Counted from the first letter of the stretch, positions 8,941 through 62,896 are shown. The stretch is DNA of 64,000 nucleotides from Spirochaetia bacterium (GCA_963692905.1 OY843583.1:1407883-1471882), one strand, 5' to 3'. Numbers and translations: made by a program. Notes: generated from the letters alone by a model not told the origin.

Positions 8941-9426
8941 TAGCGGGAAGCTCGTAGATCAACAGGACGGAGATTATCGCCCATCTCATTGGGGGTAACA
9001 CCTCGATTATTGGTATCGCCCTGACCTAGTTGGCCAAAAACGTTACTTCCCCAACACTTGACGGTTATATTATCCAACAGGGCACAGCTGTGATGTTAGG
9101 CAGCTACTATCTGGATGACCGTTCGACCGCTTCCTAAATTAATAGCCGGGAGATTGGCACCTAGTTCATTGAGGGCATCGCCTTGATCTTCAGTATTTCC
9201 CAGACCTAGCTGCCCTGAACTGTTCCTCCCCCCAGCACTGCAGGCTGTTGTCACTCAATCGCGCGCAGTTGTGATTATTGTCAGCCACGATTTGCGCGAT
9301 TGAGGCCGGAAGCCCTCCACCAGGACCCGGGGCAGCCGGGCAGGCTACCGATATTACCCCAACCACCACAGTGGCCAGCAGGGCACTCAGACGCACCTTC
9401 AAAGTACAAATGCTATCTCTTAACAT
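8941..9426 (-). pseudogene. Degraded RCC1-repeat lipoprotein gene (one frameshift plus one in-frame TAA)
   Basis: Lipobox VISVAC, then an RCC1 blade (HNCARLSDNSLQCWG). The frame breaks at the G6 run near 9225-9232. In the shifted frame it reads SSGQLGLGNTEDQGD...[13 protein letters not shown]...[15 protein letters not shown]...[16 protein letters not shown], matching the end of the 23744 gene. TAA lies at 9096-9098. Confidence 0.7.
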
Positions 9427-9655
9427 TACAATTTCTTTCTCTCCTTAAGATTTATGGAACTCATACTTGCAAGGTGTCTATAAATATAGGCTCTGCCAAG
9501 GAAAATGATGAACTTCTCAAATTTAAAAACGTTGAGAGGGAAATTCAAACTCTCTCCCTAACCTATTTTCAGTGTTATCAAAGAGCGCGGGAAACGGAGA
9601 GAAGTCAGGAAGAATCTTTGATTCCCGTAGATTTTGTAATTCTTTTGGCAACAAC

Positions 9656-11020
9656 TTAATTATGTTCGATTCCATTGAATAATGAAGATGTCTCGTCTTC
9701 TATATTTATTGGCTTGTAAGTATCAATCTCGTTAATTATTTCTTGTAAACTCCCTGACACCCATTCATGCTTGTTGTCAAACTTGTTGTGAATATGTTTT
9801 TCTATTTCTCTAAAATGTGGGGTAAACATAGCATGTTCTATCTTATAATTCCTGTCCGGATCGCTCGTCTGATAGCCGTTCAGCCTGCTATTAACATTAC
9901 TAGCTATACCAACTTTGTACTCCCTTTCATAGTTCTGGTGAGATATCACATAGACAAACTTGTGTTGAACCTGATCTTTTTCTTTTGTGTCTGTTCTGTT
10001 AGGTGGTTCAGTCAAAAATAATAAATCCTTATCAAGTATTCTGTCAGCTATAATGGGGTTTTCTATTTCTTCTTTTAACCTTTTTCTTATTTCCACATAC
10101 GTCTGCTCTAATTTGTCTATACCAATCCACCGCCTATTAAGTATCTCTGCAGCTATGCAGGTTGTCGCACACCCACAAAATGGGTCGAGGACTACGCCTC
10201 CCTCTTTGGTGCTTGATCGTATTATTCTTTTTAACAATGGTACAGGCTTTTGAGTGGGGTATTTGGTCCTCCTTTTAGACATTGAATTTTCATAAGGAAT
10301 ATCCCCCCACCAATCATTACCATTTATCCCTTCTTCAGGGTAGTAGATTCTTTCTTTTCCAGCGTCTACTCGTATTCTGCATTTTCTACCCTGTTCGTCT
10401 ATTTGTCTGTAATGGCTTTGTATATATTCTGGAGTACAAGGAAGGGTACAATCCCCCTTAAACTGATTATGATCTTTGGTGTACCATAATATAATATCAT
10501 GCTTTTTTGCCCAACTGTTCCGTTTTCCTCTCTCTTGTCTGCCCGAAGTAGAGTACCCCCATACAATCTCATTGTTAAAGTTTTCTTCTCCGAAGATATT
10601 ATCTAATAGCAATTTAAGAAAATGAGACATAAGGGGGTCGCAGTGAAAACATAAGCTACCCGTGTGTTTTAGTATTCTTTGCATTTCAATTAACCTTATC
10701 GCCATATAACATAAATAATAAAAATTATATTTTTTCCCTATTTCTTTTGTACTGTTCAGAAAAGTATACAAACTATAATGATCCTCTTTGATTGTCTGTA
10801 CCCATTCATCTTTTACATCTTCTTTTCTGAAGATATCGTTGTACCCAATCTCTGTTTGCTTTCCTGTGTCATCTTTAGTCATGGGATACACGAATTTTTT
10901 GTTAGTGTTAAAAGGTGGGTCGAGGTAAACAAGGTCAATACAATTACTATTTATGCCTTGCAAGATTTCTAGGTTATCTCTACAAAAGATGGTTCTACTA
11001 GCTATATTACAAGGTGACAT
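9656..11020 (-). CDS. Beta-class N6A/N4C DNA methyltransferase fused to a C-terminal T5orf172/MUG113 (GIY-YIG superfamily) domain
   Basis: Motif IV DPPF sits near the N-terminus and motif I VLDPFCGCATT later, which is the beta order (PF01555-like). The C-terminal roughly 100 aa read FVYVIS...YKVGIASNVNSRLNGYQTSDP...EIEKHIHNKFDNKHEWV. Strongly AT-rich. Confidence 0.8.
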   Translation of the reverse strand: MSPCNIASRTIFCRDNLEILQGINSNCIDLVYLDPPFNTNKKFVYPMTKDDTGKQTEIGYNDIFRKEDVKDEWVQTIKEDHYSLYTFLNSTKEIGKKYNFYYLCYMAIRLIEMQRILKHTGSLCFHCDPLMSHFLKLLLDNIFGEENFNNEIVWGYSTSGRQERGKRNSWAKKHDIILWYTKDHNQFKGDCTLPCTPEYIQSHYRQIDEQGRKCRIRVDAGKERIYYPEEGINGNDWWGDIPYENSMSKRRTKYPTQKPVPLLKRIIRSSTKEGGVVLDPFCGCATTCIAAEILNRRWIGIDKLEQTYVEIRKRLKEEIENPIIADRILDKDLLFLTEPPNRTDTKEKDQVQHKFVYVISHQNYEREYKVGIASNVNSRLNGYQTSDPDRNYKIEHAMFTPHFREIEKHIHNKFDNKHEWVSGSLQEIINEIDTYKPINIEDETSSLFNGIEHN

Positions 11021-11140
11021 AACTAATACTCATATCTATATTCTACCACCTCATGCGATAATTTGGCTACCGAGCTATACACATAGTAAGAAAATAAAAC
11101 AACACCCAGGGACCCTTAGTTCATTGGAGAGTATACCGGG

Positions 11141-11160
11141 GGTGTACAATGAGTGTACAG
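11141..11160 (+). repeat. Repeat core copy R0 (short; TGTACA-N5-TGTACAG)
   Basis: Ends in GTGTACAG, then 4 nt, then the -35 box TTGCAT. Same geometry as R2-R4. Confidence 0.6.
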
Positions 11161-11164
11161 CCCC

Positions 11165-11192
11165 TTGCATACTTTGTGATATTATGTAAAAT
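11165..11192 (+). promoter_or_regulatory. Sigma70-like promoter of structured-RNA module A
   Basis: TTGCAT, 16-nt spacer, TAAAAT. Identical sequence at 11520-11547. Confidence 0.5.
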
Positions 11193-11198
11193 AAAAAA

Positions 11199-11280
11199 CA
11201 GGGCGGTCAACCGAACCACCCTGAAAGGCCCCCCCGCGCCTTAGGTGAGGACATTACCCTCACAACGCGGGGGCTTTTTT
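11199..11280 (+). ncRNA. Candidate small structured RNA, module A (two stems plus intrinsic terminator)
   Basis: Stem CAGGGCGGT/ACCACCCTG, then CCCCCGCG...CGCGGGGG enclosing GTGAGG/CCTCAC, then a T6 run. No conserved ORF on either strand. A further Y-shaped hairpin lies at 11285-11327. Confidence 0.45.
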
Positions 11281-11372
11281 GTTTCACCCTTAAGTCGATA
11301 GGGGGACGAACCCCGTGCCAAAGGGTGCTATTATATACTTATTACTAGAGATCCTTTTTTTATAATACTATT

Positions 11373-11497
11373 TTACCGCTGTACACACTCATATACATCT
11401 ACTAATTTAATGGCCCTATAAGCAGAGAATATAGGGCTATGCCTCAGGAGCCAGGCCGGGTGGCGCAAAAATTCTTATAGGTAGTGATGTTGTACAG
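11373..11497 (+). repeat. Repeat R1 (long form, 125 nt)
   Basis: About 94 percent identical to 12479-12603. Contains hairpin CCCTATA-N9-TATAGGG and the core GGAGCCAGGCCGGGTGGCGCAAAAATTCTTATAGGTAGTGATGTTGTACAG. Confidence 0.85.
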
Positions 11498-11552
11498 CCC
11501 CTGTAAACCCTGTAAACCCTTGCATACTTTGTGATATTATGTAAAATAATAA

Positions 11553-11633
11553 ACAGGGCGGCCTGCCATGCCACCCTGAAAGGTTGCCCGCACCTTTTGT
11601 GAAGTTCCAACCTTCACAGCGCGGGTCTTTTTT
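11553..11633 (+). ncRNA. Candidate small structured RNA, module A' (paralog of A)
   Basis: Same promoter (TTGCAT 11520-11525, TAAAAT 11542-11547) and same fold, with compensatory changes: GTGAAG/CTTCAC and closing pair C-G instead of T-A. T6 terminator. Extra hairpin at 11638-11683. Confidence 0.45.
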
Positions 11634-11826
11634 GTTTCGCTCTCTTGCCAATAGGGGGGTTAAGGCCCCCGTGCAAGAGAGCGCTCTTTATTTTAATATT
11701 CCCATCCTCTCTTTTACAATGGCGGGGTCGATGGCTCGGTAGCGGGTTGCTGTTGCCTTTGGCAAGTTAGAAGGTTCTACAGTGAAACCTTCTACTTTCT
11801 TGTATCGGTTGCCGTGTTCATATTCA

Positions 11827-12504
11827 TCATGCGCGGTTGGCGCCACCGCGTATCACCAGCATGGCCTCGTTAGGCTTGCTACCAACGGCTAGGATTTTTT
11901 TACCATCTGGCATGATGCGCTGTATGGCTACAAGCTCGGTCCTCCATGTGCCGTCTTTTGCTACTGGCTTGTTGTATGGAATAAGTAGCTCGTTGCCAAC
12001 TACCCGAATATAGTCGGGCGGGCTTGTGATCCCCTTCTTGGCAAGGTAGGGGTGAAGCTTAGCCGCCTCGATGGCGGGCTTGGCCTGCTCCCAGTACGCT
12101 TTGTTAAATGGCTTTGCCTTTGGTTTTGGCTCGTGGTTTACCGCTCGTGGTCTAGCAGGCGTGGCTTGGCTATCAATGCACAAGCTGAAGCGCTCGGTCA
12201 CCTCGGTAGCCTTCGGTTTTCCGTTAGCCTCGCAGGTGGTTCTATGGCACCCATAGATCCCGCTCTTAGGGCTATACCACCCTGTATCGGCATTGTTGTG
12301 TTCACCTCCTCTACAATATAGGCAAATGCCTACAAGTACGCCATCACTCCCTAGCTTCCTATACTTGTGTTCCAACAGGTGGCGCTCTACAGATACCTTA
12401 GCGGCATCGATCTGTTGACGGTTATAGCGCCCGTTTGCGCTTTCTAATATGTCCACGTCTCCCCCATATTTTTTTTCTTTACCGCTGTACACCCTCATAT
12501 ACAT
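11827..12504 (-). CDS. Truncated phage/plasmid-type primase-like protein (Zn-ribbon plus start of a Toprim-like region)
   Basis: Cys/His cluster CLYCRGG...YGCHRTTC, then HPYLAKKGI...LLIPY...LVAIQRIMPDGKKILAVGSK, typical of P4/TraC-like primase N-termini. Ends after 225 aa without the catalytic Toprim or helicase parts. The 5' end lies inside repeat R2. Confidence 0.5.
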   Translation of the reverse strand: MYMRVYSGKEKKYGGDVDILESANGRYNRQQIDAAKVSVERHLLEHKYRKLGSDGVLVGICLYCRGGEHNNADTGWYSPKSGIYGCHRTTCEANGKPKATEVTERFSLCIDSQATPARPRAVNHEPKPKAKPFNKAYWEQAKPAIEAAKLHPYLAKKGITSPPDYIRVVGNELLIPYNKPVAKDGTWRTELVAIQRIMPDGKKILAVGSKPNEAMLVIRGGANRA

Positions 12505-12603
12505 CTACTAATTTAATGGCCCTATAAGGAGAGAATATAGGGCTATGCCTCAGGAGCCAGGCCGGGTGGCGTAAAAATTCTTATAGATAGTGAGGGTGTA
12601 CAA
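12479..12603 (+). repeat. Repeat R2 (long form)
   Basis: Paralog of R1. Core ends in GTGTACAA, then 4 nt (AAGA), then the -35 box TTGATT at 12608-12613. Confidence 0.85.
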
Positions 12604-12646
12604 AAGATTGATTAAGGTGAATTTTTGTGCAATGATGACCATCTTT

Positions 12647-12850
12647 ATGGCTGGCAAAGGCAAAAAAATCCGAACAGTAGGTGTAGTGGGCGCGATTATC
12701 ACTGCGCTTTGCTGCTTCACTCCGATTCTTGCGATTGGCGTAACGGCAATCGGTCTGGCTGGCATTATCGGCTGGCTGGACTATGTTTTGTTTCCGTTAT
12801 TGTTCTTGTTTTTGGGAGCGATAACTTATTCATTTATTCCGAAAAAATGA
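12647..12850 (+). CDS. MerF-like two-helix mercury/metal transporter
   Basis: LCCFTPILAIGVTAIGLAG..GWLDYVLFPLLFLFLGAITY matches the MerF pattern with its vicinal CC pair. Start chosen downstream of the predicted promoter (TTGATT-17-AATGAT). The alternative ATGs at 12632 and 12635 would precede the predicted transcription start. Confidence 0.6.
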   Translation: MAGKGKKIRTVGVVGAIITALCCFTPILAIGVTAIGLAGIIGWLDYVLFPLLFLFLGAITYSFIPKK

Positions 12851-13053
12851 GCATGCCAATCCTGCGAACCACAATTACCTCTCCGCAGTGCGGACATGAG
12901 GCGGAAGAGAGCATGCCGAAAACGCATGTCAGTGGTTTTATGAGTGTTTATCTTGCCGGTCATTGTTACGCCCTAAAAAGGGTGATTGTTGCGTTTTTTT
13001 GTTCATATGGCGAGCATCCGTGTCCACCAAAGCAACACGGTGACGGTTGTTGA
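12847..13053 (+). pseudogene. GDCCVxC-domain (mer-associated) small protein carrying two compensating homopolymer frameshifts
   Basis: ATGA overlap with the merF-like stop. Ends match the family (ITSPQCGHEAEESMP ... FCSYGEHPCPP). The family core ENACQWFYECLSCRSLLRPKKGDCCVF is encoded in the +2 frame between the A4 run at 12919-12922 and the T7 run at 12994-13000. Confidence 0.55.
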
Positions 13054-13095
13054 AACGAACTTCATTTTAGTCAACCTTTCGGCATGGTAGGGGAA

Positions 13096-13129
13096 CGTAA
13101 AAATTCTTATAGATAGTGATGTTGTACAG
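13096..13129 (+). repeat. Repeat core copy R3 (short form)
   Basis: CGTAAAAATTCTTATAGATAGTGATGTTGTACAG, then 4 nt, then TTGCAA. Confidence 0.8.
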
Positions 13130-13133
13130 TGAG

Positions 13134-13162
13134 TTGCAAAGTTTTGGCATAGCTGCTATAAT
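13134..13162 (+). promoter_or_regulatory. Orphan sigma70-like promoter after R3, cut off from its cargo by the IS
   Basis: TTGCAA, 17-nt spacer, TATAAT. The left inverted repeat of the IS begins about 40 nt downstream. Confidence 0.5.
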
Positions 13163-13204
13163 TGCTAACTAGGGCCAATATTGAATGCAGCTAGTTTCCT
13201 AGCG

Positions 13205-14567
13205 GGAATTAAAGAGACCTAGTGACCCCCTAGCCTGCACATACTAGCTCATACTCATCCTCCTAGGCAACCTCCGGGTATACTTGTGGCAATGGTGGAA
13301 GAAAAGGTGGTACTCGCATGGAAAGCCGTACCTTCTGGTAAAAGCACTCCTCCCGCGCCCTCTGAAACAATGTCTTGTATGCCTCAAGACGGTCACGGGT
13401 CATGGCTCGATCACATTCAAAGACGCTCCAGTGAAGCAGGCCCTCATCAATGGACGTGTGAGCTTCACGAAGTTTCTGGAGCGGACTTCCTCCCTTGTAG
13501 CTATTATATCGCGTGAGATTAAAAAAGCTATTATAGCGCTGTACCTCACGGAGCAACGCCTGAGTGGAGGGAGGGGGAAGCAGATGCATCCACAACTCAT
13601 CCTCATTCAACCGGTGGACACTTTCCACATCGCTTTGCCAGTTCTTCTGTCCCAGCGGGATTAAACGATGCACAGCCCCCCATTTCAGCATGGCCAGGAT
13701 TGAAAAGGCTGAAGCATGCGCATCTCCATAGGCATTGGTGAACTCTCGGCCATTATCGGTTTGAAACATTATCTCGGTACAATCTATGCCATGATGAGAG
13801 AAATGCGCACAGAGTTCATCGACAAATATCGCGGTAGCAGTTTGCGTGTTTTGCGACGAGAGCGCCATAAAGAGGGCTCCGGTGCGCACATCTCGGGCGG
13901 TAAGCTGGTACGAGGGAAGCCCTAGGCGCTGAATCAGAGGCGCATAGCCATGAATATCGGTGAGATACTTCACATCAACCATAATTCGCGCACCAGGCGG
14001 GAGTAACTGTTTTCGTTGGAATACTACCGGTGAAAGAGCTTTTCTCACCTTCTGTGGACGCGTGATTTTGAGTCCTTCTCTATGAAGGAGCGAAAGGATA
14101 GTGGAGAGACTATAGGGAATCTTCCATTTTTGTTTGAGCCACGACGCACTAATGACTATCTTCTTCTTAGTATTCGGTGCGCGATAGCGAATAAGTCGTG
14201 CACGTTCTTTTGTGGCCTCATCAATAATCTTCAAACACCAATAGGGGATCATGGCGTTGGGGGAATTAGCGGGCCTCGTGGAGCGATTCGTCAGAGGCTC
14301 ATCTTCTTTGGCCCGTCGTACCCATTTCCGCACCGTAGTGCGCGCAATCTCATAGGTTCTGCACGCTGGCTTAATACCATGACGCGTGGCATAGGCCACC
14401 ATTTCTTCACGGACCGCGCTCTGTAAGCGCGGGGTGGCATCCCGTATGACAGTATGATATACTATTTTCACATCCTGTTCTCCTTTTTATTATATTTTCT
14501 ACTGCAGTATAGCAGTTCTCCGGCATTTCTTGCTGGAGAGGGGGGTCAGGATGTCTCTTTATTTTCC
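13205..14567 (-). mobile_element. IS element (rve/DDE transposase; IS481/IS3-superfamily-like) with about 28-bp imperfect terminal inverted repeats
   Basis: Left end GGAATTAAAGAGACCTAGTGACCCCC. Reverse complement of the right end GGAAAATAAAGAGACATCCTGACCCCC. No clear target-site duplication seen. Confidence 0.6.
13263..14471 (-). CDS. DDE transposase (HTH plus integrase-core rve domain)
   Basis: N-terminal HTH (ARTTVRKWVRR). Catalytic-like D (MVDVKY), D (QTDNGREF) and E (SDVESVHR). Confidence 0.8.
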   Translation of the reverse strand: MKIVYHTVIRDATPRLQSAVREEMVAYATRHGIKPACRTYEIARTTVRKWVRRAKEDEPLTNRSTRPANSPNAMIPYWCLKIIDEATKERARLIRYRAPNTKKKIVISASWLKQKWKIPYSLSTILSLLHREGLKITRPQKVRKALSPVVFQRKQLLPPGARIMVDVKYLTDIHGYAPLIQRLGLPSYQLTARDVRTGALFMALSSQNTQTATAIFVDELCAHFSHHGIDCTEIMFQTDNGREFTNAYGDAHASAFSILAMLKWGAVHRLIPLGQKNWQSDVESVHRLNEDELWMHLLPPPSTQALLREVQRYNSFFNLTRYNSYKGGSPLQKLREAHTSIDEGLLHWSVFECDRAMTRDRLEAYKTLFQRAREECFYQKVRLSMRVPPFLPPLPQVYPEVA

Positions 14568-14587
14568 TATTTTTTTGTGAAAAAATG

Positions 14588-22874: not shown

Positions 22875-23072
22875 TTAGCCCTCTAGTTGATAATGTACGG
22901 TTTTGGTCAGCACCTGACGAATGGCGGCCACCACCGGCTTCAGCCCCTCATCTTCGGCCTCTTCGTCTGCCTCGCCACTCATAGTAATTTGATAAGCCCT
23001 ACGGGTCATTGCTGCGCTGAGTCCATAGGCATTATCAGTGTTGTCATTCAATAGTGCTAAGGGAAGTGCCAT
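22875..23072 (-). CDS. Hypothetical 65-aa acidic protein
   Basis: ORF preceded by TTGACA-17-TATTAT (23093-23121 on the minus strand) with the ATG a few nt after the -10 box. No recognisable family. Confidence 0.35.
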   Translation of the reverse strand: MALPLALLNDNTDNAYGLSAAMTRRAYQITMSGEADEEAEDEGLKPVVAAIRQVLTKTVHYQLEG

Positions 23073-23103
23073 GTTGCATATAATAGTCTCGGTTATTAAT
23101 TAT

Positions 23104-23214
23104 GTCAAGGCATTTGTAAAAGAATGTAAAAGAAAGTTGAAAATGTCACTGCTCCTCCAGATATACTGGAGGAGCAGTGAACACAGCGATATTTTCTATT
23201 AGTACCAAAGAGGT
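23104..23214 (-). repeat. Conserved intergenic element E1 with a 12-bp perfect hairpin
   Basis: CTGCTCCTCCAG-ATATA-CTGGAGGAGCAG (23149-23177) plus flanks. Shared with 62761-62896. Confidence 0.7.
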
Positions 23215-23340: not shown

Positions 23341-23532
23341 GATCAACTCTCTCTTTATTTTTTACAAATTCTCCATTTCACTTGCCATTACATATCCAAT
23401 AGGGTATACATATACTTATGGTAATGCACCAGTTGGCTATATTGCGCTATGCGGAGGGAAGCTATGCTCCTCTCCTTAGCTATAGTTCATTAGGTGCCTA
23501 CCAAATAAATATAAATAAGGAGGATTATAGTA
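23341..23532 (+). promoter_or_regulatory. Shared promoter plus roughly 150-nt structured leader of the lipoprotein family (copy L1)
   Basis: TTGCCA-17-TATACA. Conserved block TGCGCTATGCGGAGGGAAGCTATGCTCCTCTCC..TAGCTATAGT with a hairpin. RBS AAGGAGGA before the ATG at 23533. Confidence 0.55.
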
Positions 23533-23600
23533 ATGATATTACATAATCCAATTTCTTTCCTTTTAGGAGAGAAAGAGACAGCAAGCGCTCTTAAGACTTG

Positions 23601-23650
<50 letters not shown>

Positions 23651-23743
23651 AGCTCTCTTAATACTTGCCAGAGAGAGAACCACGTTTCCCCGCATTCCCC
23701 GCTTAAGGGGAGGGTACTGTGGGGCACCCTAGGGGCTGCCGGG

Positions 23744-25123
23744 GTGGTATTGGCGGCCCTGGTGGTATTGGTAGCCTGTCCGGCTACCCCTAGTCCCGGT
23801 CCGGGATTGGCCTCTGTCACAGAGGTGGCAGCGGCTCACGGGCACAGTTGCGCCCGGTTGGAGGGTGGCAGCCTCAAATGTTGGGGAGACAATGGCTTTG
23901 GCCAGCTAGGTCAGGGTCATACCCGCACCCTAGGCGATAGCACCACTGATGGGGTGGCTACTATCCCGGCTATTGATCTAGGCACTGGTCGAAGCGCCAC
24001 TCAGATAGTAGCCAATGGAGGTCAATATACAATTAGTGGAGTTAATACTGAAGTAGGTCACAGTTGCGCCCTCCTGGATAATGGGAGTGTCAAGTGTTGG
24101 GGAAATAACGCTTTTGGCCAGCTAGGGCTGGGTGATACCGATACTCGAGGCGATGAGTCCGGTGAGATGGGCAATAGCCTCCCAGCTATTGATCTAGGAA
24201 GCGGCCAAACTGCTACCCGGCTAGCTGCAAGTGGCAGTCACAGCTGCGCTCTCTTGGATAATGGGAATGTCAAGTGTTGGGGAAATAACGCTTTTGGCCA
24301 GCTAGGTCAGGGTCATACCCGCACCCTAGGCGATAGCACCACTGATGAAGTGGCTACTATCCCAGCTATTGATCTAGGAGGCGGCCGCACCGCCACCCAG
24401 ATAGCCACAGGTAGCCTTCACAGCTGCGCCCTCCTGAATAATGGGAGTGTCAAATGTTGGGGATGGAACACAGCTGGCCAGCTAGGTCAGGGTCATACCC
24501 GCACCCTAGGCGATAGCACCACTGATGAAGTGGCTACTATCCCAGCTATTGATCTAGGAGGCGGCCGCACCGCCACCCAGATAGCCACAGGTAGCCTTCA
24601 CAGCTGCGCCCTCCTGAATAATGGGAGTGTCAAATGTTGGGGAAATAACGGTTTTGGCCGGCTAGGTCTGGGCGATACCGATCATCGAGGCAATGAGCCC
24701 AATGAAATGGGCGATAGTCTCCCAGCTATTGATCTAGGAGGCGGCCGAACTGCTACCCAGATAGCTATAAGTGTCAGGCACAGCTGCGCCCTTTTGGATA
24801 ATGGGAGTGTCAAGTGTTGGGGATTTAACAATAGGGGCCAGCTAGGTCAGGGTCATAACCGTACCCTAGGCGATGGGCCCAATGAGATGGGCGATAATCT
24901 CCCAGCTATTGATCTAGGCACTGGCCGAACTGCTACCCAGATAGCTGCAGGTTCCACTCACAACTGCGCTCTCCTGGATAATCGGAGAGTCAAATGTTGG
25001 GGATGGAACGCAGGTGGCCAGTTAGGTCTGGGCGATACCAATGATCGAGGCGATGAGCCCGGCGATGAGCCCAATGAGATGGGCGATAATCTCCCCTTTG
25101 TTGATCTGCGGGCTTCCCGTTAG
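23744..25123 (+). CDS. RCC1-repeat (beta-propeller) surface lipoprotein. The likely true start is ATG 23533, which is out of frame through the AG tract.
   Basis: Lipobox LVAC. Seven or more RCC1 blades ([23 protein letters not shown]). Conserved in-frame residues upstream of the GTG (SPHSPLKGRVLWGTLGAAG). Confidence 0.8.
   Translation: MVLAALVVLVACPATPSPGPGLASVTEVAAAHGHSCARLEGGSLKCWGDNGFGQLGQGHTRTLGDSTTDGVATIPAIDLGTGRSATQIVANGGQYTISGVNTEVGHSCALLDNGSVKCWGNNAFGQLGLGDTDTRGDESGEMGNSLPAIDLGSGQTATRLAASGSHSCALLDNGNVKCWGNNAFGQLGQGHTRTLGDSTTDEVATIPAIDLGGGRTATQIATGSLHSCALLNNGSVKCWGWNTAGQLGQGHTRTLGDSTTDEVATIPAIDLGGGRTATQIATGSLHSCALLNNGSVKCWGNNGFGRLGLGDTDHRGNEPNEMGDSLPAIDLGGGRTATQIAISVRHSCALLDNGSVKCWGFNNRGQLGQGHNRTLGDGPNEMGDNLPAIDLGTGRTATQIAAGSTHNCALLDNRRVKCWGWNAGGQLGLGDTNDRGDEPGDEPNEMGDNLPFVDLRASR
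24295..24643 (+). repeat. Perfect tandem duplication (period 180 bp) of one RCC1 blade
   Basis: 24295-24463 is identical to 24475-24643. Confidence 0.95.
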
Positions 25124-25261
25124 CCGAGATGAGAAAACCCATTGAGTTGGATTAGGGAGCGGTTTCATCCGCTCCCGCTCTCTATTAGTGTGCAATCATC
25201 ATCGACCGCATGCCGGTATTGGGTATCGTAGCGTTGCGAACAGTTAGAAGAATCGGTATGC

Positions 25262-25315
25262 TTCAGGGCCAGGCCGGGTGGCGTAACAATTATTATAGGT
25301 AGTGATGTTGTACAA
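25262..25315 (+). repeat. Repeat core copy R4 (short form)
   Basis: TTCAGGGCCAGGCCGGGTGGCGTAACAATTATTATAGGTAGTGATGTTGTACAA, then 4 nt, then TTGACT. Confidence 0.8.
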
Positions 25316-25319
25316 ATGC

Positions 25320-25348
25320 TTGACTCTCGCGCCGTTTTTCGCTATAAT
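25320..25348 (+). promoter_or_regulatory. Sigma70-like promoter giving a (near-)leaderless transcript
   Basis: TTGACT, 17-nt spacer, TATAAT. The ATG lies 7 nt after the -10 box. Confidence 0.55.
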
Positions 25349-25355
25349 ACAGTTT

Positions 25356-25718
25356 ATGAAAATTTTTCGTATTATAATTTTAGTTTTGGGCATTCTGTTG
25401 TCCATACAGGGAATCATCGGCACGGTTGTCGACATATCCGGGGGCATCCTTGAGTTCTCCAGCATTGCAATTGAGAGCATATTCAGCGCGATTTCTGCTC
25501 TGCTTATCGTGATTGTGTTGGCCGGCCGGATGCAGGCGAGCCGGTTCGGGCAGCTGGTCGCGGCGGTCGTCTCGGTTTCCTTCTTTATGAACATCATACT
25601 GGCGCTGGGCTTCGCAGTCGGTATGCTTGAGCAGGGCAACCCCAATCTTGTGTGGTTCATACCCTTGGTTCCCGCCGTAATTCAATCGCTCTTTTTGATT
25701 TACTATCTGCGATCCTAG
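25356..25718 (+). CDS. Small integral membrane protein (about 4 TM helices), unknown family
   Basis: Hydrophobic helices throughout. Start chosen at the ATG just after the predicted transcription start. Confidence 0.5.
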   Translation: MKIFRIIILVLGILLSIQGIIGTVVDISGGILEFSSIAIESIFSAISALLIVIVLAGRMQASRFGQLVAAVVSVSFFMNIILALGFAVGMLEQGNPNLVWFIPLVPAVIQSLFLIYYLRS

Positions 25719-26005
25719 TGTTGCGCGGGGAAGAAACCGAATTCCTACACAGACAGTCTCATTCTGCACCGATTTTCCAAGAACTGTGACTTCTGTTTTG
25801 TCAGCCGTGCAGATATACTGGTGTTTCAGAAACAGTTGAACAATGAGCCACGGAAGGTATTGGGGGTTTTCGGACACCTTATAAGGTGTTCTTAAAGATA
25901 CTGGAATCTACTCCGGAGAGTCGGAGTGGTGTATTTGTATATTTAATCCACTCTCTACATAAAATATCTGTTACGCTCCCTTATCCTACTCTTTAGCTTA
26001 GCAGC

Positions 26006-27095: not shown

Positions 27096-27320
27096 TTCTG
27101 AAACTCCTCCATATAATTATTATAAATTTGATAAATGCCTAAGCGACTATAGCTAGGGGAGAGGAGTATAGCTTCCCTCCGCATAGCGCATAGAATCATT
27201 AGTTTCATAATCATGAATAGAGTATAGCATATGGGATATATAATGGCAAGGTTAAAATAGAAAATTTTGTAAGGGAAAGTTAACCATGTCCCTTAAAAAA
27301 TAGAGGGAAGCATCCTTAAT
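27096..27320 (-). promoter_or_regulatory. Shared promoter/leader, copy L3
   Basis: TTGCCA-17-TATACT and the conserved GCGCTATGCGGAGGGAAGCTATACTCCTCTCCCCTAGCTATAGTCGC block. RBS GGAGGAG before the ATG at 27095. Confidence 0.55.
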
Positions 27321-34310: not shown

Positions 34311-34811
34311 TTAGAAAATTGGCCAGTTTAACACAAAGCAGACAAAAGGGGTTATCTTCTCATGATTAAGCATAGCTTTTATGCCTATAAGATTTTTCCC
34401 TAATCGTTCTACCGCATTCCCTTGTGCCTGTTTCCTCTTGCCTTCTTTCTCTCTATCTTTATTTGTACCCTGTCTTTTTACCTCTGCAACAAGAACAATT
34501 TTAATATAGTTGTGTTCAGTATCTTTTCTTAGTAGCAAGATCCCTCCATCTGGCTTTATGGTTCTTTCTTTATACTGAGTTTCAAATTCATCTCGTATTC
34601 TCTGGTCTTTGATCATCTTTTGCATCTTCTCAAAAGAGATAGATTTCTCAAACTGCAAGTAGTACCCCTTTAATTCATATTCAAACCTTCCCTCTAAATA
34701 CTCTCTTGCCAATTTCTGAGCTCTATAAATTTCCTTGTCATCTATTTTAGATTTAGTATTTTTGGCTCGGTGTTGATTAATATTTCTTCTTAATTGCTCA
34801 CTGGTTGCCAT
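34311..34811 (-). pseudogene. EcoRI/MunI-like type II restriction endonuclease, apparently C-terminally truncated
   Basis: IKPDGGILLL...IVLVAEVKRQG...GNAVERLGKN aligns with the EcoRI PD..E.K core and the GNAIER recognition motif. Stops about 30 aa after GNAVER, with no continuation in other frames. Confidence 0.6.
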
Positions 34812-35415
34812 AAAAATAGTGCCCCCTCATTCCGCGGACATTAAACACTAGTACTTCACTATGAAACAATATATCTTCAAATAAATTTTTAGGGAGACTA
34901 ATAATACTGGTAATAGCTGGATATGTACCATCTACAAATTTTCTCCATCGTTTACTGTCAACCGTTTGATTAAGACGGAAGCCATACGGAGTAAACATAA
35001 CAATAGGGATATTTCTGCCAAATAATTCAATGGCCTTCATTAGCCATACTTCGGGCAATAGCGGTCTCCCTCCATAATGTAGTTTTACATACGCTTTAGT
35101 TTTTGCATCAATGTTAAAGGGGGGATTCATGATTATTAGAGCCGGATTAGGCAACTCCCCCCTCTTAAACTCAAGATAATTTTTCTTTATCATAGGAGAA
35201 AAGCCTTGATCTTCTATATCTATGCCTAATACATCATATCCGGCCTGCACAAAAGGAAGGAGAAGTGAGCCCCTACCAACACAAGGATCTAATATCAATC
35301 TCTTTTTAATATGGTCTTTTAGTATTGAATAGAGAAAGCGGCTAGTAGATAAAGGGGTATATACAGTTGCCTTCTTTTCATTAGTATAAAAGTTGTTTCT
35401 ATCTACTCTGTACAA
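34798..35415 (-). CDS. Small gamma-class N6-adenine DNA methyltransferase
   Basis: Motif I ILDPCVGRGSLL comes before motif IV NPPF. Overlaps the REase gene by 14 nt. TTG start. Confidence 0.75.
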   Translation of the reverse strand: MYRVDRNNFYTNEKKATVYTPLSTSRFLYSILKDHIKKRLILDPCVGRGSLLLPFVQAGYDVLGIDIEDQGFSPMIKKNYLEFKRGELPNPALIIMNPPFNIDAKTKAYVKLHYGGRPLLPEVWLMKAIELFGRNIPIVMFTPYGFRLNQTVDSKRWRKFVDGTYPAITSIISLPKNLFEDILFHSEVLVFNVRGMRGHYFYGNQ

Positions 35416-46130: not shown

Positions 46131-46335
46131 GTAGACATTCAGCTCTCTCTTTATTTTCCTTCAAAATTCTCCATTTCCTTTGACATATATGCATCCCATA
46201 TGCTATACTTTACCTATGGTAATGTACCAATTGGTTATGTTGCGCTATGCGGAGGGAAGCTATGCTCCTCTCCCCTAGCTATAGTCGCTTAGGCACTTAC
46301 CAAATTTATAATAAATATATGGAGGATATTCAGAG
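46131..46335 (+). promoter_or_regulatory. Shared promoter/leader, copy L2
   Basis: TTGACA-18-TATACT. Conserved leader block with hairpin. RBS GGAGGA before the ATG at 46336. Confidence 0.55.
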
Positions 46336-46418
46336 ATGAAATATCTTAATATAAGTTCTTTCCTTTTGAGAGAGAATGAGAGAGTGAAGGAGCGACTGAG
46401 CACTCGTAAAAACGCTTC

Positions 46419-46442
46419 AGAGAGAGAGAGAGAGAGAGAGAG
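46419..46442 (+). repeat. (AG)12 dinucleotide tract inside the 5' coding extension
   Basis: 24 nt of uninterrupted AG. Confidence 0.95.
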
Positions 46443-46507
46443 TAAGCTCTCTTAATACTTACCAGAGAGAGAACCATGTCTCCCCGCATTCCCCGTTTAA
46501 GGGGAGG

Positions 46508-47719
46508 GTGCTGTGGGGCACCCTGGGGGCCGCCTTAATGGTATTGGTGACCCTGGTAGTATTGGTAGCCTGTCCGGCTGCGAATAATGCTGGAAATGGA
46601 GGTCCTGGTCCTGGTCCTAGTCCTGATGAGGAGTATGTCTGTGCCAACGGCACCGCCGTTGATGGTACCACTGATACGGCTGGGGAAACCCGCTGTGTAA
46701 GCTGTGACACGAATTATGTCCTGTCCGGTGTTGCCTGCGTTCGTCGGGCCGGTATCTGCTTTAATCCACCAGGCGGTGACATACTTGTCGGTACTGCGGA
46801 CGATAATACGCTTACTAGTACCACTGCAAATAATGAGCTGTATGGTTGTGGAGGGACCGATACCTATGTCTTTGCCGCCAACTTTGGTATGGATAGTATT
46901 GGATCTGACATGACCACCGATAGCGAATTAGAGGGGGAAGACACAATACAGTTTGATAGCGCCGCGGCGCTCTCTTTTGGCTATATTACTGGCACTACCC
47001 ATGTCACCATTGGTCAAGGGAGCGGCCATACCCTTACCATTTACGAGCCCGATCGTATCCTTGGTAGCGCCACTTCTCTTGAGACCGGCCCCCCCAGTGC
47101 GGTGGACTTTAAGCTACGGCATGGAGGCACAACCTACAATGTAATGGTAGGGGATTTAGGCTCTAGTGCTTCTGGTGTACTACCCCCTACACTATTACTA
47201 GTTGGGACTCCAGCCCCGGATATCTTAATCGGATTTGGTGGAGACGATTTCCTTGCAGGAGCAGTTTTTCTAAGTACTATCCCGAACACTGATAATGATA
47301 TTCTCCTGGGTGGTGCAGGTAATGATATTATACGTGGCCATCAAGGTGACGATCTACTGATTGGTGGCCCTGGTAACGATCAGCTCTATGGTGGAGCACC
47401 CGACGACAGACCTGTAGACGATGCCTGGGGAGCAGATATCTTTCGCTTTGGTAGCAACTTTGGTACTGATACGATTGGGTTTTATGGTGGAGTTAGTTCT
47501 ACTATGGCTCTTGGCATAGACTCCACAGATAGGCTAGAGTTCACCGATACTGGCACCCTTACCTTGAGTTGGAACGCCGATAACGACCTTACCATTGCAC
47601 AGGGAAGCGATAGTGTTCTTGTTTATAGAGCCAACAGGGCCTTTGGTTTTACTATTGAGTGGAATAGTATGACTGAGACGGTAGATAGCACTACCGATCT
47701 TCTGGTAGATGGTATGTAA
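46508..47719 (+). CDS. Surface lipoprotein with RTX-type calcium-binding nonapeptide repeats. The likely true start is ATG 46336, which is out of frame through the AG tract.
   Basis: Shared N-terminal module and lipobox LVAC, Cys module YVCANGT..RCVSCD, and GGAGNDIIRGHQGDDLLIGGPGNDQLYGG (GGxGxD repeats). Confidence 0.8.
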   Translation: MLWGTLGAALMVLVTLVVLVACPAANNAGNGGPGPGPSPDEEYVCANGTAVDGTTDTAGETRCVSCDTNYVLSGVACVRRAGICFNPPGGDILVGTADDNTLTSTTANNELYGCGGTDTYVFAANFGMDSIGSDMTTDSELEGEDTIQFDSAAALSFGYITGTTHVTIGQGSGHTLTIYEPDRILGSATSLETGPPSAVDFKLRHGGTTYNVMVGDLGSSASGVLPPTLLLVGTPAPDILIGFGGDDFLAGAVFLSTIPNTDNDILLGGAGNDIIRGHQGDDLLIGGPGNDQLYGGAPDDRPVDDAWGADIFRFGSNFGTDTIGFYGGVSSTMALGIDSTDRLEFTDTGTLTLSWNADNDLTIAQGSDSVLVYRANRAFGFTIEWNSMTETVDSTTDLLVDGM

Positions 47720-62325: not shown

Positions 62326-62730
62326 CTAGGCCTTTTTCGCTTTGCTCCTCCAGGCACCAATTATTAATCCAATAATAATTTGCCGTATCGTCAAGAAAGC
62401 TGAGTCTACTGCTATTGCAGCGGTAGAGGCTCCCAAAAAAATTCCATTGGTGATAACCCCTGGAACAATCATGAAGAGTGTGAATAAAAGACTACACACT
62501 ACATGCTTTCCAACAGTTTTAATCTCTAGCCAGGATGCTAAATAGGCCACCCCTATCACAAAGAGAAACCCCGAAATAAGACTTGCTACACTACCTGCAG
62601 CAAAACTAATTGGAGATTCATTAATCCCCCATCCCGCAGCCCACACAGTGGCAAAGAGTGTGTACCATATAAATCCAAGAATCTGAATCGCAATGGTACT
62701 TACTATAATTGCAGACCATTTAATTTTCAT
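62326..62730 (-). CDS. DUF1761-like small membrane protein
   Basis: Four TM helices. N-terminus MKIKWSAIIVSTIAIQILGFIWYTLF. Start chosen at the internal ATG downstream of the conserved promoter element. Confidence 0.55.
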   Translation of the reverse strand: MKIKWSAIIVSTIAIQILGFIWYTLFATVWAAGWGINESPISFAAGSVASLISGFLFVIGVAYLASWLEIKTVGKHVVCSLLFTLFMIVPGVITNGIFLGASTAAIAVDSAFLTIRQIIIGLIIGAWRSKAKKA

Positions 62731-62760
62731 AAATTTATACTGCAATAGATGTCTCCTTGT

Positions 62761-62896
62761 GTCAAGGGCTTGTATACCCCATTGTAAAAGAAAATTAAAA
62801 ATGTTCCTTTGAAAGAAAGTTGAAAATGTCACTGCTCCTCCAGGTATACTAAAGGAGCATGCAAACAGCAGCACTAGCTATGAGTACCAAAGAGGT
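62761..62896 (-). repeat. Conserved intergenic element E2 (paralog of E1)
   Basis: GAAAGTTGAAAATGTCACTGCTCCTCCAGGTATACT...AGTACCAAAGAGGT is shared with 23104-23214. Confidence 0.7.

Follow-up and report, generated by a model that had tools for sequence, protein, structure and literature searches.

We analyzed a 64-kb stretch of DNA from a Spirochaetia bacterium (GCA_963692905.1, OY843583.1:1407883-1471882; the window, part of a 1.88-Mb contig, with positions counted from its first letter), in which copies of a short repeat, here called R, lie immediately upstream of promoter-like sites of unrelated genes. Our results showed that R has the anatomy of a MITE (miniature inverted-repeat transposable element): it is a short (<300 bp) non-coding palindrome with inverted termini. 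It is unusual in that it carries no promoter hexamer and yet stands in base-exact register to the -35 hexamer in four independent junctions. The reading that we favor, and that we put forward as a tentative one, is that a MITE-like palindromic repeat was joined to promoters at a TNTACA box and that its copies were later eroded and shuffled. A preliminary description of the region 11141-13162 had seen in it unrelated cassettes joined by a repeat; what looked like a cassette array consists of the scrambled remains of mobile-element DNA.

Copies, boundaries and palindromic structure of R

With a repeat finder, we detected in the window a family of four members (D7) and a pair of 125-nt repeats that are 95% identical (D9). 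With up to 3 mismatches allowed, a 27-nt core pattern matched at 11470, 12576, 13102 and 25288, always on the + strand, where shuffled sequences (n=100) lead to an expectation of 0.00. The four corresponding copies, R1 to R4, are the complete credible set in 64 kb according to blastn and nhmmer (--max, full and core profiles), and all of them are on the + strand. R1 (11372-11497) and R2 (12478-12603) are full-length 125-nt imperfect palindromes with 95% identity, in good agreement with the pair of 125-nt long forms, about 94% identical, that had been described before. The 5' part is missing from the two other copies. R3 (13096-13129, with weaker similarity back to 13087) keeps ~34-43 nt of the 3' end, 34 nt of which are 94% identical to R1, and R4 (25257-25315) keeps 59 nt of the 3' end at 91.5% identity to R1. 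R4 is located 12 kb off the cluster, past grpE-dnaK-dnaJ, and follows an RCC1-repeat lipoprotein gene and its terminator.

One sharp 3' boundary is common to all copies, with unrelated flanks, and the 5' extent varies. The spacers that follow R show no mutual similarity, and the boundary of homology is therefore a sharp one. A common 3' edge combined with a variable 5' extent is typical of decayed element copies.

The preliminary description had counted five copies, four of them in the same orientation within 2 kb, all keeping at least the 3' core. This is true of R1 to R4 but not of R0, which is a degenerate remnant. R0 lacks the 40-nt core and is missed by the profile search, and its match to the R1 junction is limited to 12 nt (GTACAGCCCCT...). 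When gaps are allowed in an alignment with R1 and R2, the segments AGTTCATTG, GAGAGTATA, CCGGG and GGGTGTACAA occur in the right order on the + strand at about 11118-11149, which suggests that this interval (R0a) is a collapsed, degenerate R copy with a 3' end of the R2 type (GGGTGTACAA). It is followed on the same strand by R0b (11150-11160), made of TGAG and a second terminal fragment, TGTACAG. Together, R0a and R0b form the palindrome GGGGGTGTACA-ATGAG-TGTACAGCCCC (inverted-repeat pair I3). R0 with a structured RNA module (module A) and R1 with its paralogue (module B) constitute a tandem duplication of 90% identity (D11). Since R0 and R1 thus represent one junction that was duplicated together with the RNA module, there are four independent junctions and not five.

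As single-stranded DNA, R1 and R2 each fold, whichever strand is taken, into one long imperfect hairpin in which both ends are paired. The fold of R2 has a z of -4.2 and none of 200 shuffles was equally stable. The terminal inverted repeat of R2 is perfect over 12 bp (TGTACACCCTCA / TGAGGGTGTACA, 12/12), and that of R1 matches at 9/12 (TGTACACACTCA / TGATGTTGTACA). Of the 7 positions at which R1 and R2 differ, one belongs to the 5' terminus and two to the 3' terminus. These three lie in the central triplets, and where R1 has C-T, A-G and C-T mismatches, R2 has three C-G pairs. As the changes restore pairing, the termini appear to have been kept alike, as expected for recognition by a transposase or of a hairpin. 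The terminal sequences also imply at least two subtypes of R, with R2 and R0a ending in GGGTGTACA and R1, R3 and R4 ending in TGTTGTACA. The palindrome and the terminal inverted repeats of the full copies had been missed by the preliminary description.

The two internal hairpins of R differ from each other. We found no Rfam match for R at the gathering or at a permissive threshold, no promoter predicted inside R and no credible open reading frame (ORF): reading of the sequence gave just 9-13 codons, in a frame that is not conserved among copies. Taken as a leftward -35 hexamer, the TGTACA of the left end matches weakly, at 4/6 only, and this end carries no mirror-image promoter. Two other candidate identities were ruled out. 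An invertible promoter is excluded because no promoter is predicted in R and no invertase is present in the window, and a dif/Xer-type site because the arms around TGTACA, as read from the sequence, are not inverted repeats.

Register of R to promoters and promoters without R

At R0, R2, R3 and R4, the layout is TGTACA-R-N4-TTGnnn (R being a purine in this formula), then 16-17 nt and a -10-like hexamer, so that the -35 hexamer begins exactly 5 nt beyond the TGTACA end of the repeat. The same holds for R1 after an 18-nt insert (11502-11519, + strand) that lies between R1 and the promoter. This insert consists of TGTAAACCC x2, and each unit resembles an R terminus plus linker (TGTACAGCCCC). These observations bear out what had been reported on the 4 nt, the -35-like hexamer and the 16-17 nt spacer, as well as on a 9-nt duplication at R1.

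The promoter-like sites, all on the + strand, are of unequal quality. The junction of R0 (J1, copy A; 11165-11192) has TTGCAT, 16 nt and TAAAAT, and is among the weaker ones (8/12); its -10 hexamer is the complement of the U-tract of a minus-strand terminator. Copy B of J1, at R1 (11520-11547), has the same hexamers and spacing and belongs to the D11 repeat (90% identity). J2, at R2 (12608-12636), combines TTGATT, 17 nt and AATGAT and is weak (8/12). J3, at R3 (13134-13162), reads TTGCAA, 17 nt, TATAAT (10/12) with a TG extension, and J4, at R4 (from 25320), reads TTGACT, 17 nt, TATAAT (11/12). Among the R junctions, a consensus promoter scanner lists only those of R3 (10/12) and R4 (11/12). 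The earlier claim that each unit starts with a promoter of its own is thus upheld insofar as a promoter-like site is present at every junction, but a strong consensus exists only at R3 and R4, the sites of R0/R1 and R2 being weaker (8/12).

In the window, TTG followed by a -10-like hexamer at 16-18 nt has a background of 0.0014 per position (0.14%). With the offset set by the first junction, the chance of finding the three further junctions at that same offset is ~3e-9. The fixed register is thus highly non-random, far beyond chance. Transcription on the + strand is predicted to start near 11199, 11554, 12643-12647, 13169 and 25355-25356. Relative to the predicted starts, TGTACA lies at about -46 to -41 and an A/T-rich block of R at about -70 to -58. 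"Portable junction/promoter module", as the arrangement had been called, is a fair term for a sharp-edged repeat at a fixed register upstream of unrelated promoters.

We found the same layout without R at two promoters on the minus strand. The first, 23120(-) (23080-23146), reads TTTACA-AATGCC-TTGACA, 17 nt, TATTAT, with the box 6 nt from the -35 hexamer, and has the 9-mer TACAAATGC in common with the R4 junction (TGTACA-AATGC-TTGACT). The second, 62776(-) (62720-62860), reads TATACA-AGCCC-TTGACA, with the box 5 nt from the -35 hexamer, and compares with TGTACA-GCCCC-TTGCAT at R0/R1. The linkers are near-identical in both comparisons, namely TACAAATGC(C)TTGAC at 23120(-) versus R4 and AGCCC at 62776(-) versus GCCCC at R0/R1. 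Upstream of 23120(-) are a 22-nt D13 box and a terminator hairpin, and upstream of 62776(-) are two D13 boxes and the same terminator hairpin.

The D13 boxes are part of a second upstream-repeat family (D13/D14), which occupies 23040-23176, 27268-27289 and 62700-62860 on the minus strand. Its members are composed of a terminator hairpin (TGCTCCTCCAG...CTGGAGGAGCA), one or two 22-nt boxes (ACATTTTCAACTTTCTTTTACA) and then differing TTGACA promoters. The D13 box ends in T-TACA, as R does.

The pattern T[AGT]TACA-N4-6-TTG occurs 12 times in the window against 5.1 +/- 2.4 expected, and the R junctions together with the D13-family promoters account for the excess. A general host promoter motif was ruled out: other strong promoter-like sites lack the box, which is present only at the R junctions and at two D13-family promoters, and it is therefore no general host feature. 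The existence of promoters with the same layout and without R argues that the fixed register is probably a property of the promoter family to which R is joined. Judging from these matches, the TNTACA box, which precedes the -35 hexamer by 5-6 bp, thus probably belongs to that promoter family, with R joined at it. The layout TNTACA-N5/6-TTGAC without R largely demystifies the "exactly 4 nt before -35" of the preliminary description, in which it had been overlooked.

Explanations for the register

From these arrangements we infer that R was mobile, how it was joined to promoters and that it affects them. R would be a small non-coding transposon-like repeat of ~125 bp, bounded by inverted TGTACAC(N)CTCA termini, whose copies now sit in the wreckage of at least one mobile element (a methylase of phage type, a truncated primase-helicase, a pair of mercury genes with frameshifts and insertion sequence (IS) elements). 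Its 3' terminus TGTACA coincides with the TNTACA box that precedes the -35 hexamer by 5-6 bp in the promoter family, and R could have been joined there either by an insertion that prefers the box or by recombination at the common bases. We propose that joining at TNTACA accounts for the constant register of the R end. R3 and R4 without their 5' part, the collapsed R0 and the tandem "R end + RNA module" would stem from deletions and illegitimate recombination that came later. A regulatory effect of R on the adjacent promoter is likely, given the position of its TGTACA, its A/T-rich block and its 125-nt hairpin-forming body: R supplies no promoter hexamer but would modulate or insulate the promoter.

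Several observations weigh against this proposal. No target-site duplication was found at R1 or R2, where a TA duplication may be hidden within TG-TA-CA. The window holds 4-5 copies in 64 kb, in one orientation and with three of them within 2 kb, whereas a typical MITE is dispersed and found in both orientations. The 8 nt to the left of R1 and of R2 are identical (TTTACCGC), and it may be that the insertions of the two full copies were not independent events. R0a has a junction of its own (TGTACAA-TGAG-TGTACA) without TTG at the usual offset. The argument from empty sites consists of two short paralogous matches, and a window-wide ungapped scan with reconstructed empty sites (some of which, E1 and E2, contained boundary errors) did not firm it. 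No transposase with R-like ends is present in the window, in which the transposition genes are those of an IS481-type element and of an apparent IS30-type fragment (identified by eye). Lastly, no collection that we searched contains a copy of R, and there is hence no presence/absence polymorphism to show its mobility.

The preliminary description had suggested a search for the core in related genomes and for a linked tyrosine or serine recombinase; neither was found, in the collections searched and in the 64 kb, respectively. Exact or degenerate patterns of the core, and an inverted-repeat-plus-gap pattern, gave zero matches in genome, metagenome and viral contig collections. Distant blastn of 11100-13200 against plasmids and phages produced no match. 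According to the identities of GrpE, the collections compared contain no close relative of this organism: no GrpE of the GTDB species representatives exceeds 45% identity, and the best one in a large protein collection reaches 53% (ENA metagenome contig L083, 1.15 Mb). This contig keeps the grpE-dnaK-dnaJ-spoU order, and nothing R-like was found there. Pfam, PHROG and NCBIfam searches on the locus proteins and doubtful ORFs, with the remaining ORFs of the window judged housekeeping by their N-terminal sequence alone, revealed no tyrosine or serine recombinase, integrase or resolvase in 64 kb. The window has no gene resembling a RAYT (REP-associated tyrosine transposase, REP being a repetitive extragenic palindrome).

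In a stronger form of the proposal, R would be a site-specific element that is active, or else a site used by an unrecognized recombinase, and would be directed to TNTACA 5 bp upstream of the -35 hexamer. We consider this form unlikely. If true, such an element would plug a portable 125-bp hairpin module onto promoters or swap promoter-plus-gene units, for which there is no described bacterial counterpart, and targeting of the box would be a new kind of insertion specificity.

Alternatively, the 3' half of R, with TGTACA and the A/T-rich block, may be an operator or activator module upstream of a mobile element's own promoters that is not itself transposable, a possibility that we regard as doubtful but serious. 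It would have spread by homologous recombination or gene conversion, as a "putative mobile promoter", and its function would set the distance to the -35 hexamer. The exact register to RNA polymerase at four junctions fits such a role, as does the TGTACA palindrome, whose center near -43.5 is a location also used by regulators of class II type. At R0, the dyad GGGGGTGTACA-N5-TGTACAGCCCC places two TGTACA one helical turn apart between divergent units, the methylase to the left and the RNA module to the right, and the unrelated D13 family also ends in TTTACA just upstream of promoters. R2 and R4 are in addition covered by the definition of putative mobile promoters, which are repeats of at least 50 nt and at least 80% identity upstream of unrelated genes in one genome (Matus-Garcia, Nijveen and van Passel 2012). 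However, sites of regulators are normally 14-25 bp long and degenerate, whereas here 40-125 nt are kept at 91-95% identity next to a random spacer; near-identity over such lengths beside random DNA points to recent copying and not to constraint. An upstream module would also leave unexplained the 125-nt palindrome and the co-varying terminus far from the promoter, the left end of R lacks the mirror-image promoter, and neither the Pfam scan of the locus proteins nor the scan of doubtful ORFs revealed a regulator gene at the locus. A portable upstream control module, if that is what R is, would make a compact natural "promoter adaptor".

It is improbable, in our view, that R is neither functional nor mobile and that the pattern results from local segmental duplication and illegitimate recombination in a decaying island, the register being inherited from one "R + promoter" ancestor whose downstream parts were replaced. 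Such a history is visible in the clear tandem duplication of R0/module A and R1/module B (D11), in the 8-nt left flank that R1 and R2 have in common and in the many truncated and frameshifted genes of the region, and it would suit the absence of the core from every other genome of the collections searched. It does not account for R2, R3 and R4, whose flanks are unrelated on both sides and which nevertheless have a base-identical breakpoint and a promoter in register, as random replacement would not give this. R4 is moreover separated from the cluster by 12 kb with housekeeping genes (grpE-dnaK-dnaJ and others), and the paired changes in the R2 termini argue for selection or templated copying.

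The preliminary description had also considered R to be the recombination site of a cassette system. In its worked-out form, R would be an attC-like site of a non-canonical system (compare the Vibrio VCRs), with [N4-TTG...genes...R] as the promoter-bearing unit, which a site-specific recombinase would insert and excise by crossover at TGTACA. We hold this to be quite improbable, in spite of several suggestive features. Three to four R sites lie in the same orientation within 2 kb with unrelated segments of 0.2-1.1 kb between them, the 125-nt imperfect palindromes have inverted terminal boxes like a folded attC, and the sharp boundary at a palindromic hexamer resembles a crossover. R0 looks like two R termini spaced by 11 nt and might have been left by an excision, and junction linkers recur (TGAG-T at R0a and R3). 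However, neither an integrase or resolvase nor, apart from the IS481-type transposase, any other recombinase was found in 64 kb. In a regular-expression scan of 11100-13200 and 25200-25400, RYYYAAC was absent and GTTRRRY occurred only inside the primase ORF; the absence of such sites had already been noted. With no integrase in 64 kb and no R or L boxes, we agree that this is not a canonical integron. The contents of the units also speak against cassettes. One unit is the reverse-oriented first quarter of a primase-helicase gene plus a duplicated RNA module, two units begin with the same 45 nt, and another holds a frameshifted gene (GDCCVxC). A folded site would need a 5' terminal box, which is missing from R3 and R4. 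R4 stands alone among housekeeping genes, and the merF-GDCCVxC unit is found elsewhere with its own promoter and no R.

The least probable idea, to which we give hardly any credit, is that R is an iteron-bearing cis-replication repeat (P4 ori/crr-like) of a primase-helicase island, with the inverted TGTACACC octamers as protein binding sites: the primase-helicase starts 18 nt from R2, which lies upstream of it, and there are two ~125-nt direct repeats, each with inverted TGTACAC(C) boxes, but R3, R4 and the exact register to four unrelated promoters are left unexplained, the DNA-binding C-terminal part of the primase-helicase is deleted and the phage and plasmid records searched show no detectable similarity. 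The crr of satellite phage P4 has two ~120-bp direct repeats with the alpha-protein octamer TGTTCACC, and this octamer resembles TGTACACC at 7/8. A MITE-like repeat joined to promoters at the TNTACA box stays our preferred, if tentative, reading.

Surroundings of the repeats and comparison with known systems

To the left of R0 lies a gene of low GC content (33-40%) on the minus strand (9656-11020), whose product is an N6/N4 DNA methylase of phage type with a fused T5orf172/GIY-YIG-like domain, and the interval 9400-11100 is a low-GC island (31-42%, compared to 48% for the window overall). At 9096-9426, there are frame-shifted fragments which, judged by their translation, resemble an RCC1-repeat lipoprotein gene.

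RNA module A (11190-11345) and its paralogue, module B (11545-11700), have the same three hairpins. Of the 37 pairs that support them, 6 are compensatory; read on the + strand, several G-U pairs would turn into C-A mismatches. The first hairpin and its U-run form an intrinsic terminator on the minus strand only (11223-11199 in module A), and a minus-strand promoter-like site (TTGTAA-18-TAAAAT, 11719-11690) is located just upstream of module B. G-U pairs and a terminator that exist on the minus strand only make it more likely that the structured RNA is read towards R0/R1, so the minus strand is favored for both modules. On that strand, the predicted RNA of module B runs from ~11683 to ~11547, and that of module A ends at ~11190. 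This departs from the earlier view in which the modules were cargo of the + strand promoters. In module A, the second hairpin (~11230-11285) is a terminator on the + strand and would provide a possible antisense partner: the + strand promoter would, according to this model, yield a ~90-nt antisense RNA ending at that hairpin. The convergent terminators on both strands suggest that the structured RNAs, of ~140 nt each, belong to sense/antisense pairs of small RNAs. Neither module has an Rfam match (gathering or permissive threshold), and no further copy was found in the window or in the compared loci.

Between module B and R2 lies the remnant of a phage/island-type primase-helicase gene (11688-12456, minus strand), which covers about the N-terminal quarter of a ~850-aa protein and has a homopolymer-associated frameshift near 11840, which may reflect decay of the gene or an assembly error. 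It matches phrog_2249 and phrog_47 over profile positions ~40-200 of 800-950. The remnant was an orphan in a word-indexed protein search and had no homologues in phage collections. An exhaustive HMMER search returned seven relatives, all distant, and three of these, of 851-929 aa, align from their own residue 5 on ORF residues 28-223. The probable start is therefore the GTG at position 12456, 18 nt to the left of R2, and some three quarters of the gene are gone, the DNA-binding C-terminal part included.

Downstream of R2 are a merF-like gene (Pfam MerF; 12647-12850, + strand; source gene call from 12632), whose ATG at 12647 would give a nearly leaderless transcript, and a GDCCVxC gene (12847-13053, + strand), which scores 38.1 bits with NCBIfam GDCCVxC, just below the 40-bit cutoff. 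The two genes had been correctly recognized before as a merF-like and GDCCVxC cargo, but the pair is not intact. In comparison with homologues on two short public contigs (L081 and L082), the frame of the GDCCVxC gene shifts by -1 near 12912 and is restored by a +1 shift in a T-run near 12990, so that ~27 codons, those of the GDCCV motif among them, are out of frame. This frameshift pair indicates either a pseudogene or a homopolymer assembly error. The merF-GDCCVxC unit recurs on both contigs at 67% amino acid identity; there, R is absent and a different promoter, the unit's own, immediately follows a terminator. As the DNA upstream of it cannot be aligned, these contigs are silent on how R was joined to the merF unit.

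The only intact IS in the window is an IS481-type insertion sequence (13200-14570, minus strand; phrog_8463); the J3 promoter precedes it by 41 nt, and the grpE promoter follows it. Its 27-nt inverted ends (pair I1) are unrelated to R. The assignment to IS481 is tentative, since NF033577 matches with E = 7e-26 but at 91 bits against a cutoff of 224 bits. After the J4 promoter, a 120-aa membrane-protein ORF (ATG 25356, to 25718, + strand) would be expressed from a leaderless transcript and has no family match in Pfam, PHROG or NCBIfam. Further on, at ~25790-25890, two frames read ...QKQLNNEPRKVLG... and ...FRTPYKVFLK..., which by eye is an apparent frameshifted C-terminus of an IS30-type transposase.

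Genes at 12647, 23072(-), 25356 and 62727(-) start 7-10 nt past the predicted -10 hexamer without a Shine-Dalgarno sequence. With several such starts, leaderless or near-leaderless mRNAs seem to be common in this organism and are no special trait of R-adjacent genes. The previously predicted leaderless or nearly leaderless transcripts agree with the genes at 12647 and 25356; they are not specific to R, as those at 23072 and 62727 are alike.

Elsewhere in the window, ~440 nt of upstream DNA are duplicated (23347-23785 and 46145-46579; 76-92% identical in blocks). One copy lies just before the gene for the RCC1-repeat lipoprotein (23744-25123), the other just before a gene (46508-47719) whose product looks like a lipoprotein and has a similar N-terminal signal, and the long (GA)n tracts of the duplicated DNA (23602-23650 and 46410-46450) are candidates for slipped-strand phase variation. 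An apparent EcoRI-like restriction-modification remnant is found at 34311-35415(-), with an endonuclease ORF of 166 aa against a profile of 257 positions and an adjacent N6 methylase ORF that matches just the first ~60 profile positions.

R can be compared with several known systems. An integron requires the IntI integrase, attI and attC with conserved R and L boxes. Like attC, and in particular the homogeneous ~125-bp Vibrio repeats, R forms imperfect palindromes in the same orientation between unrelated short segments. It differs in the absence of an integrase from the 64-kb window and of RYYYAAC/GTTRRRY, in having gene fragments as units and in two sites without the 5' box. Integron cassettes typically contain one complete ORF and are mostly promoterless, although some carry their own promoters, whereas the R units contain gene fragments and each has a promoter-like site. 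An attC-like end-to-end hairpin is formed by R1 and R2, but any palindromic MITE has one too.

R is also similar to enterobacterial repetitive intergenic consensus (ERIC) sequences, REPINs and Rickettsia palindromic elements, which are non-coding intergenic palindromes of ~70-130 nt; some ERIC and REPIN copies carry or affect promoters. These elements are present in tens to hundreds of dispersed copies; for R, 4-5 copies are visible in 64 kb. REPINs are moreover doublets of REP sequences tied to a linked RAYT transposase (IS200-like Y1), unlike R, which has no RAYT in the window and whose two internal hairpins are dissimilar. The upstream homology box of the Borrelia erp/ospE-F genes is a conserved stretch common to otherwise unrelated genes on mobile replicons; it is spread by recombination and bound by regulators. 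Compared to R, that box includes the promoter and operator and contains no palindromic unit with terminal inverted repeats.

The closest mechanistic analogue is found in the Correia elements (CREE) of Neisseria. These are non-coding, ~105-155 bp long, bounded by inverted repeats and able to fold into hairpins; they lie 5' of genes and alter transcription. They exist as 100-250 dispersed copies, duplicate their target and are hotspots of rearrangement and deletion. Their promoter hexamers are inside the element, as a -35 and partial -10 ("Black") or as a -10 in the first 6 bases ("Snyder"). R is likewise inverted-repeat-bounded, hairpin-forming and upstream of genes, but both hexamers are outside at a fixed 5 bp, there is no target duplication and 4-5 copies are present in 64 kb.

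The preliminary description had stated that no system with this architecture was known, which is too strong, as putative mobile promoters and promoter-associated MITEs are documented. The former comprise more than 4000 families, most of them without a known mechanism or an Rfam match (Matus-Garcia, Nijveen and van Passel 2012). R2 and R4 resemble them in length, identity and position (R1/R4, 59 nt at 91.5%; R1/R2, 125 nt at 95%; unrelated downstream genes). In contrast to R, this is a descriptive class with no mechanism attached, and neither a palindrome nor an exact -35 register is part of it. Repeats that reach the upstream side of unrelated genes are a recognized, though mechanistically obscure, route to the rewiring of transcription.

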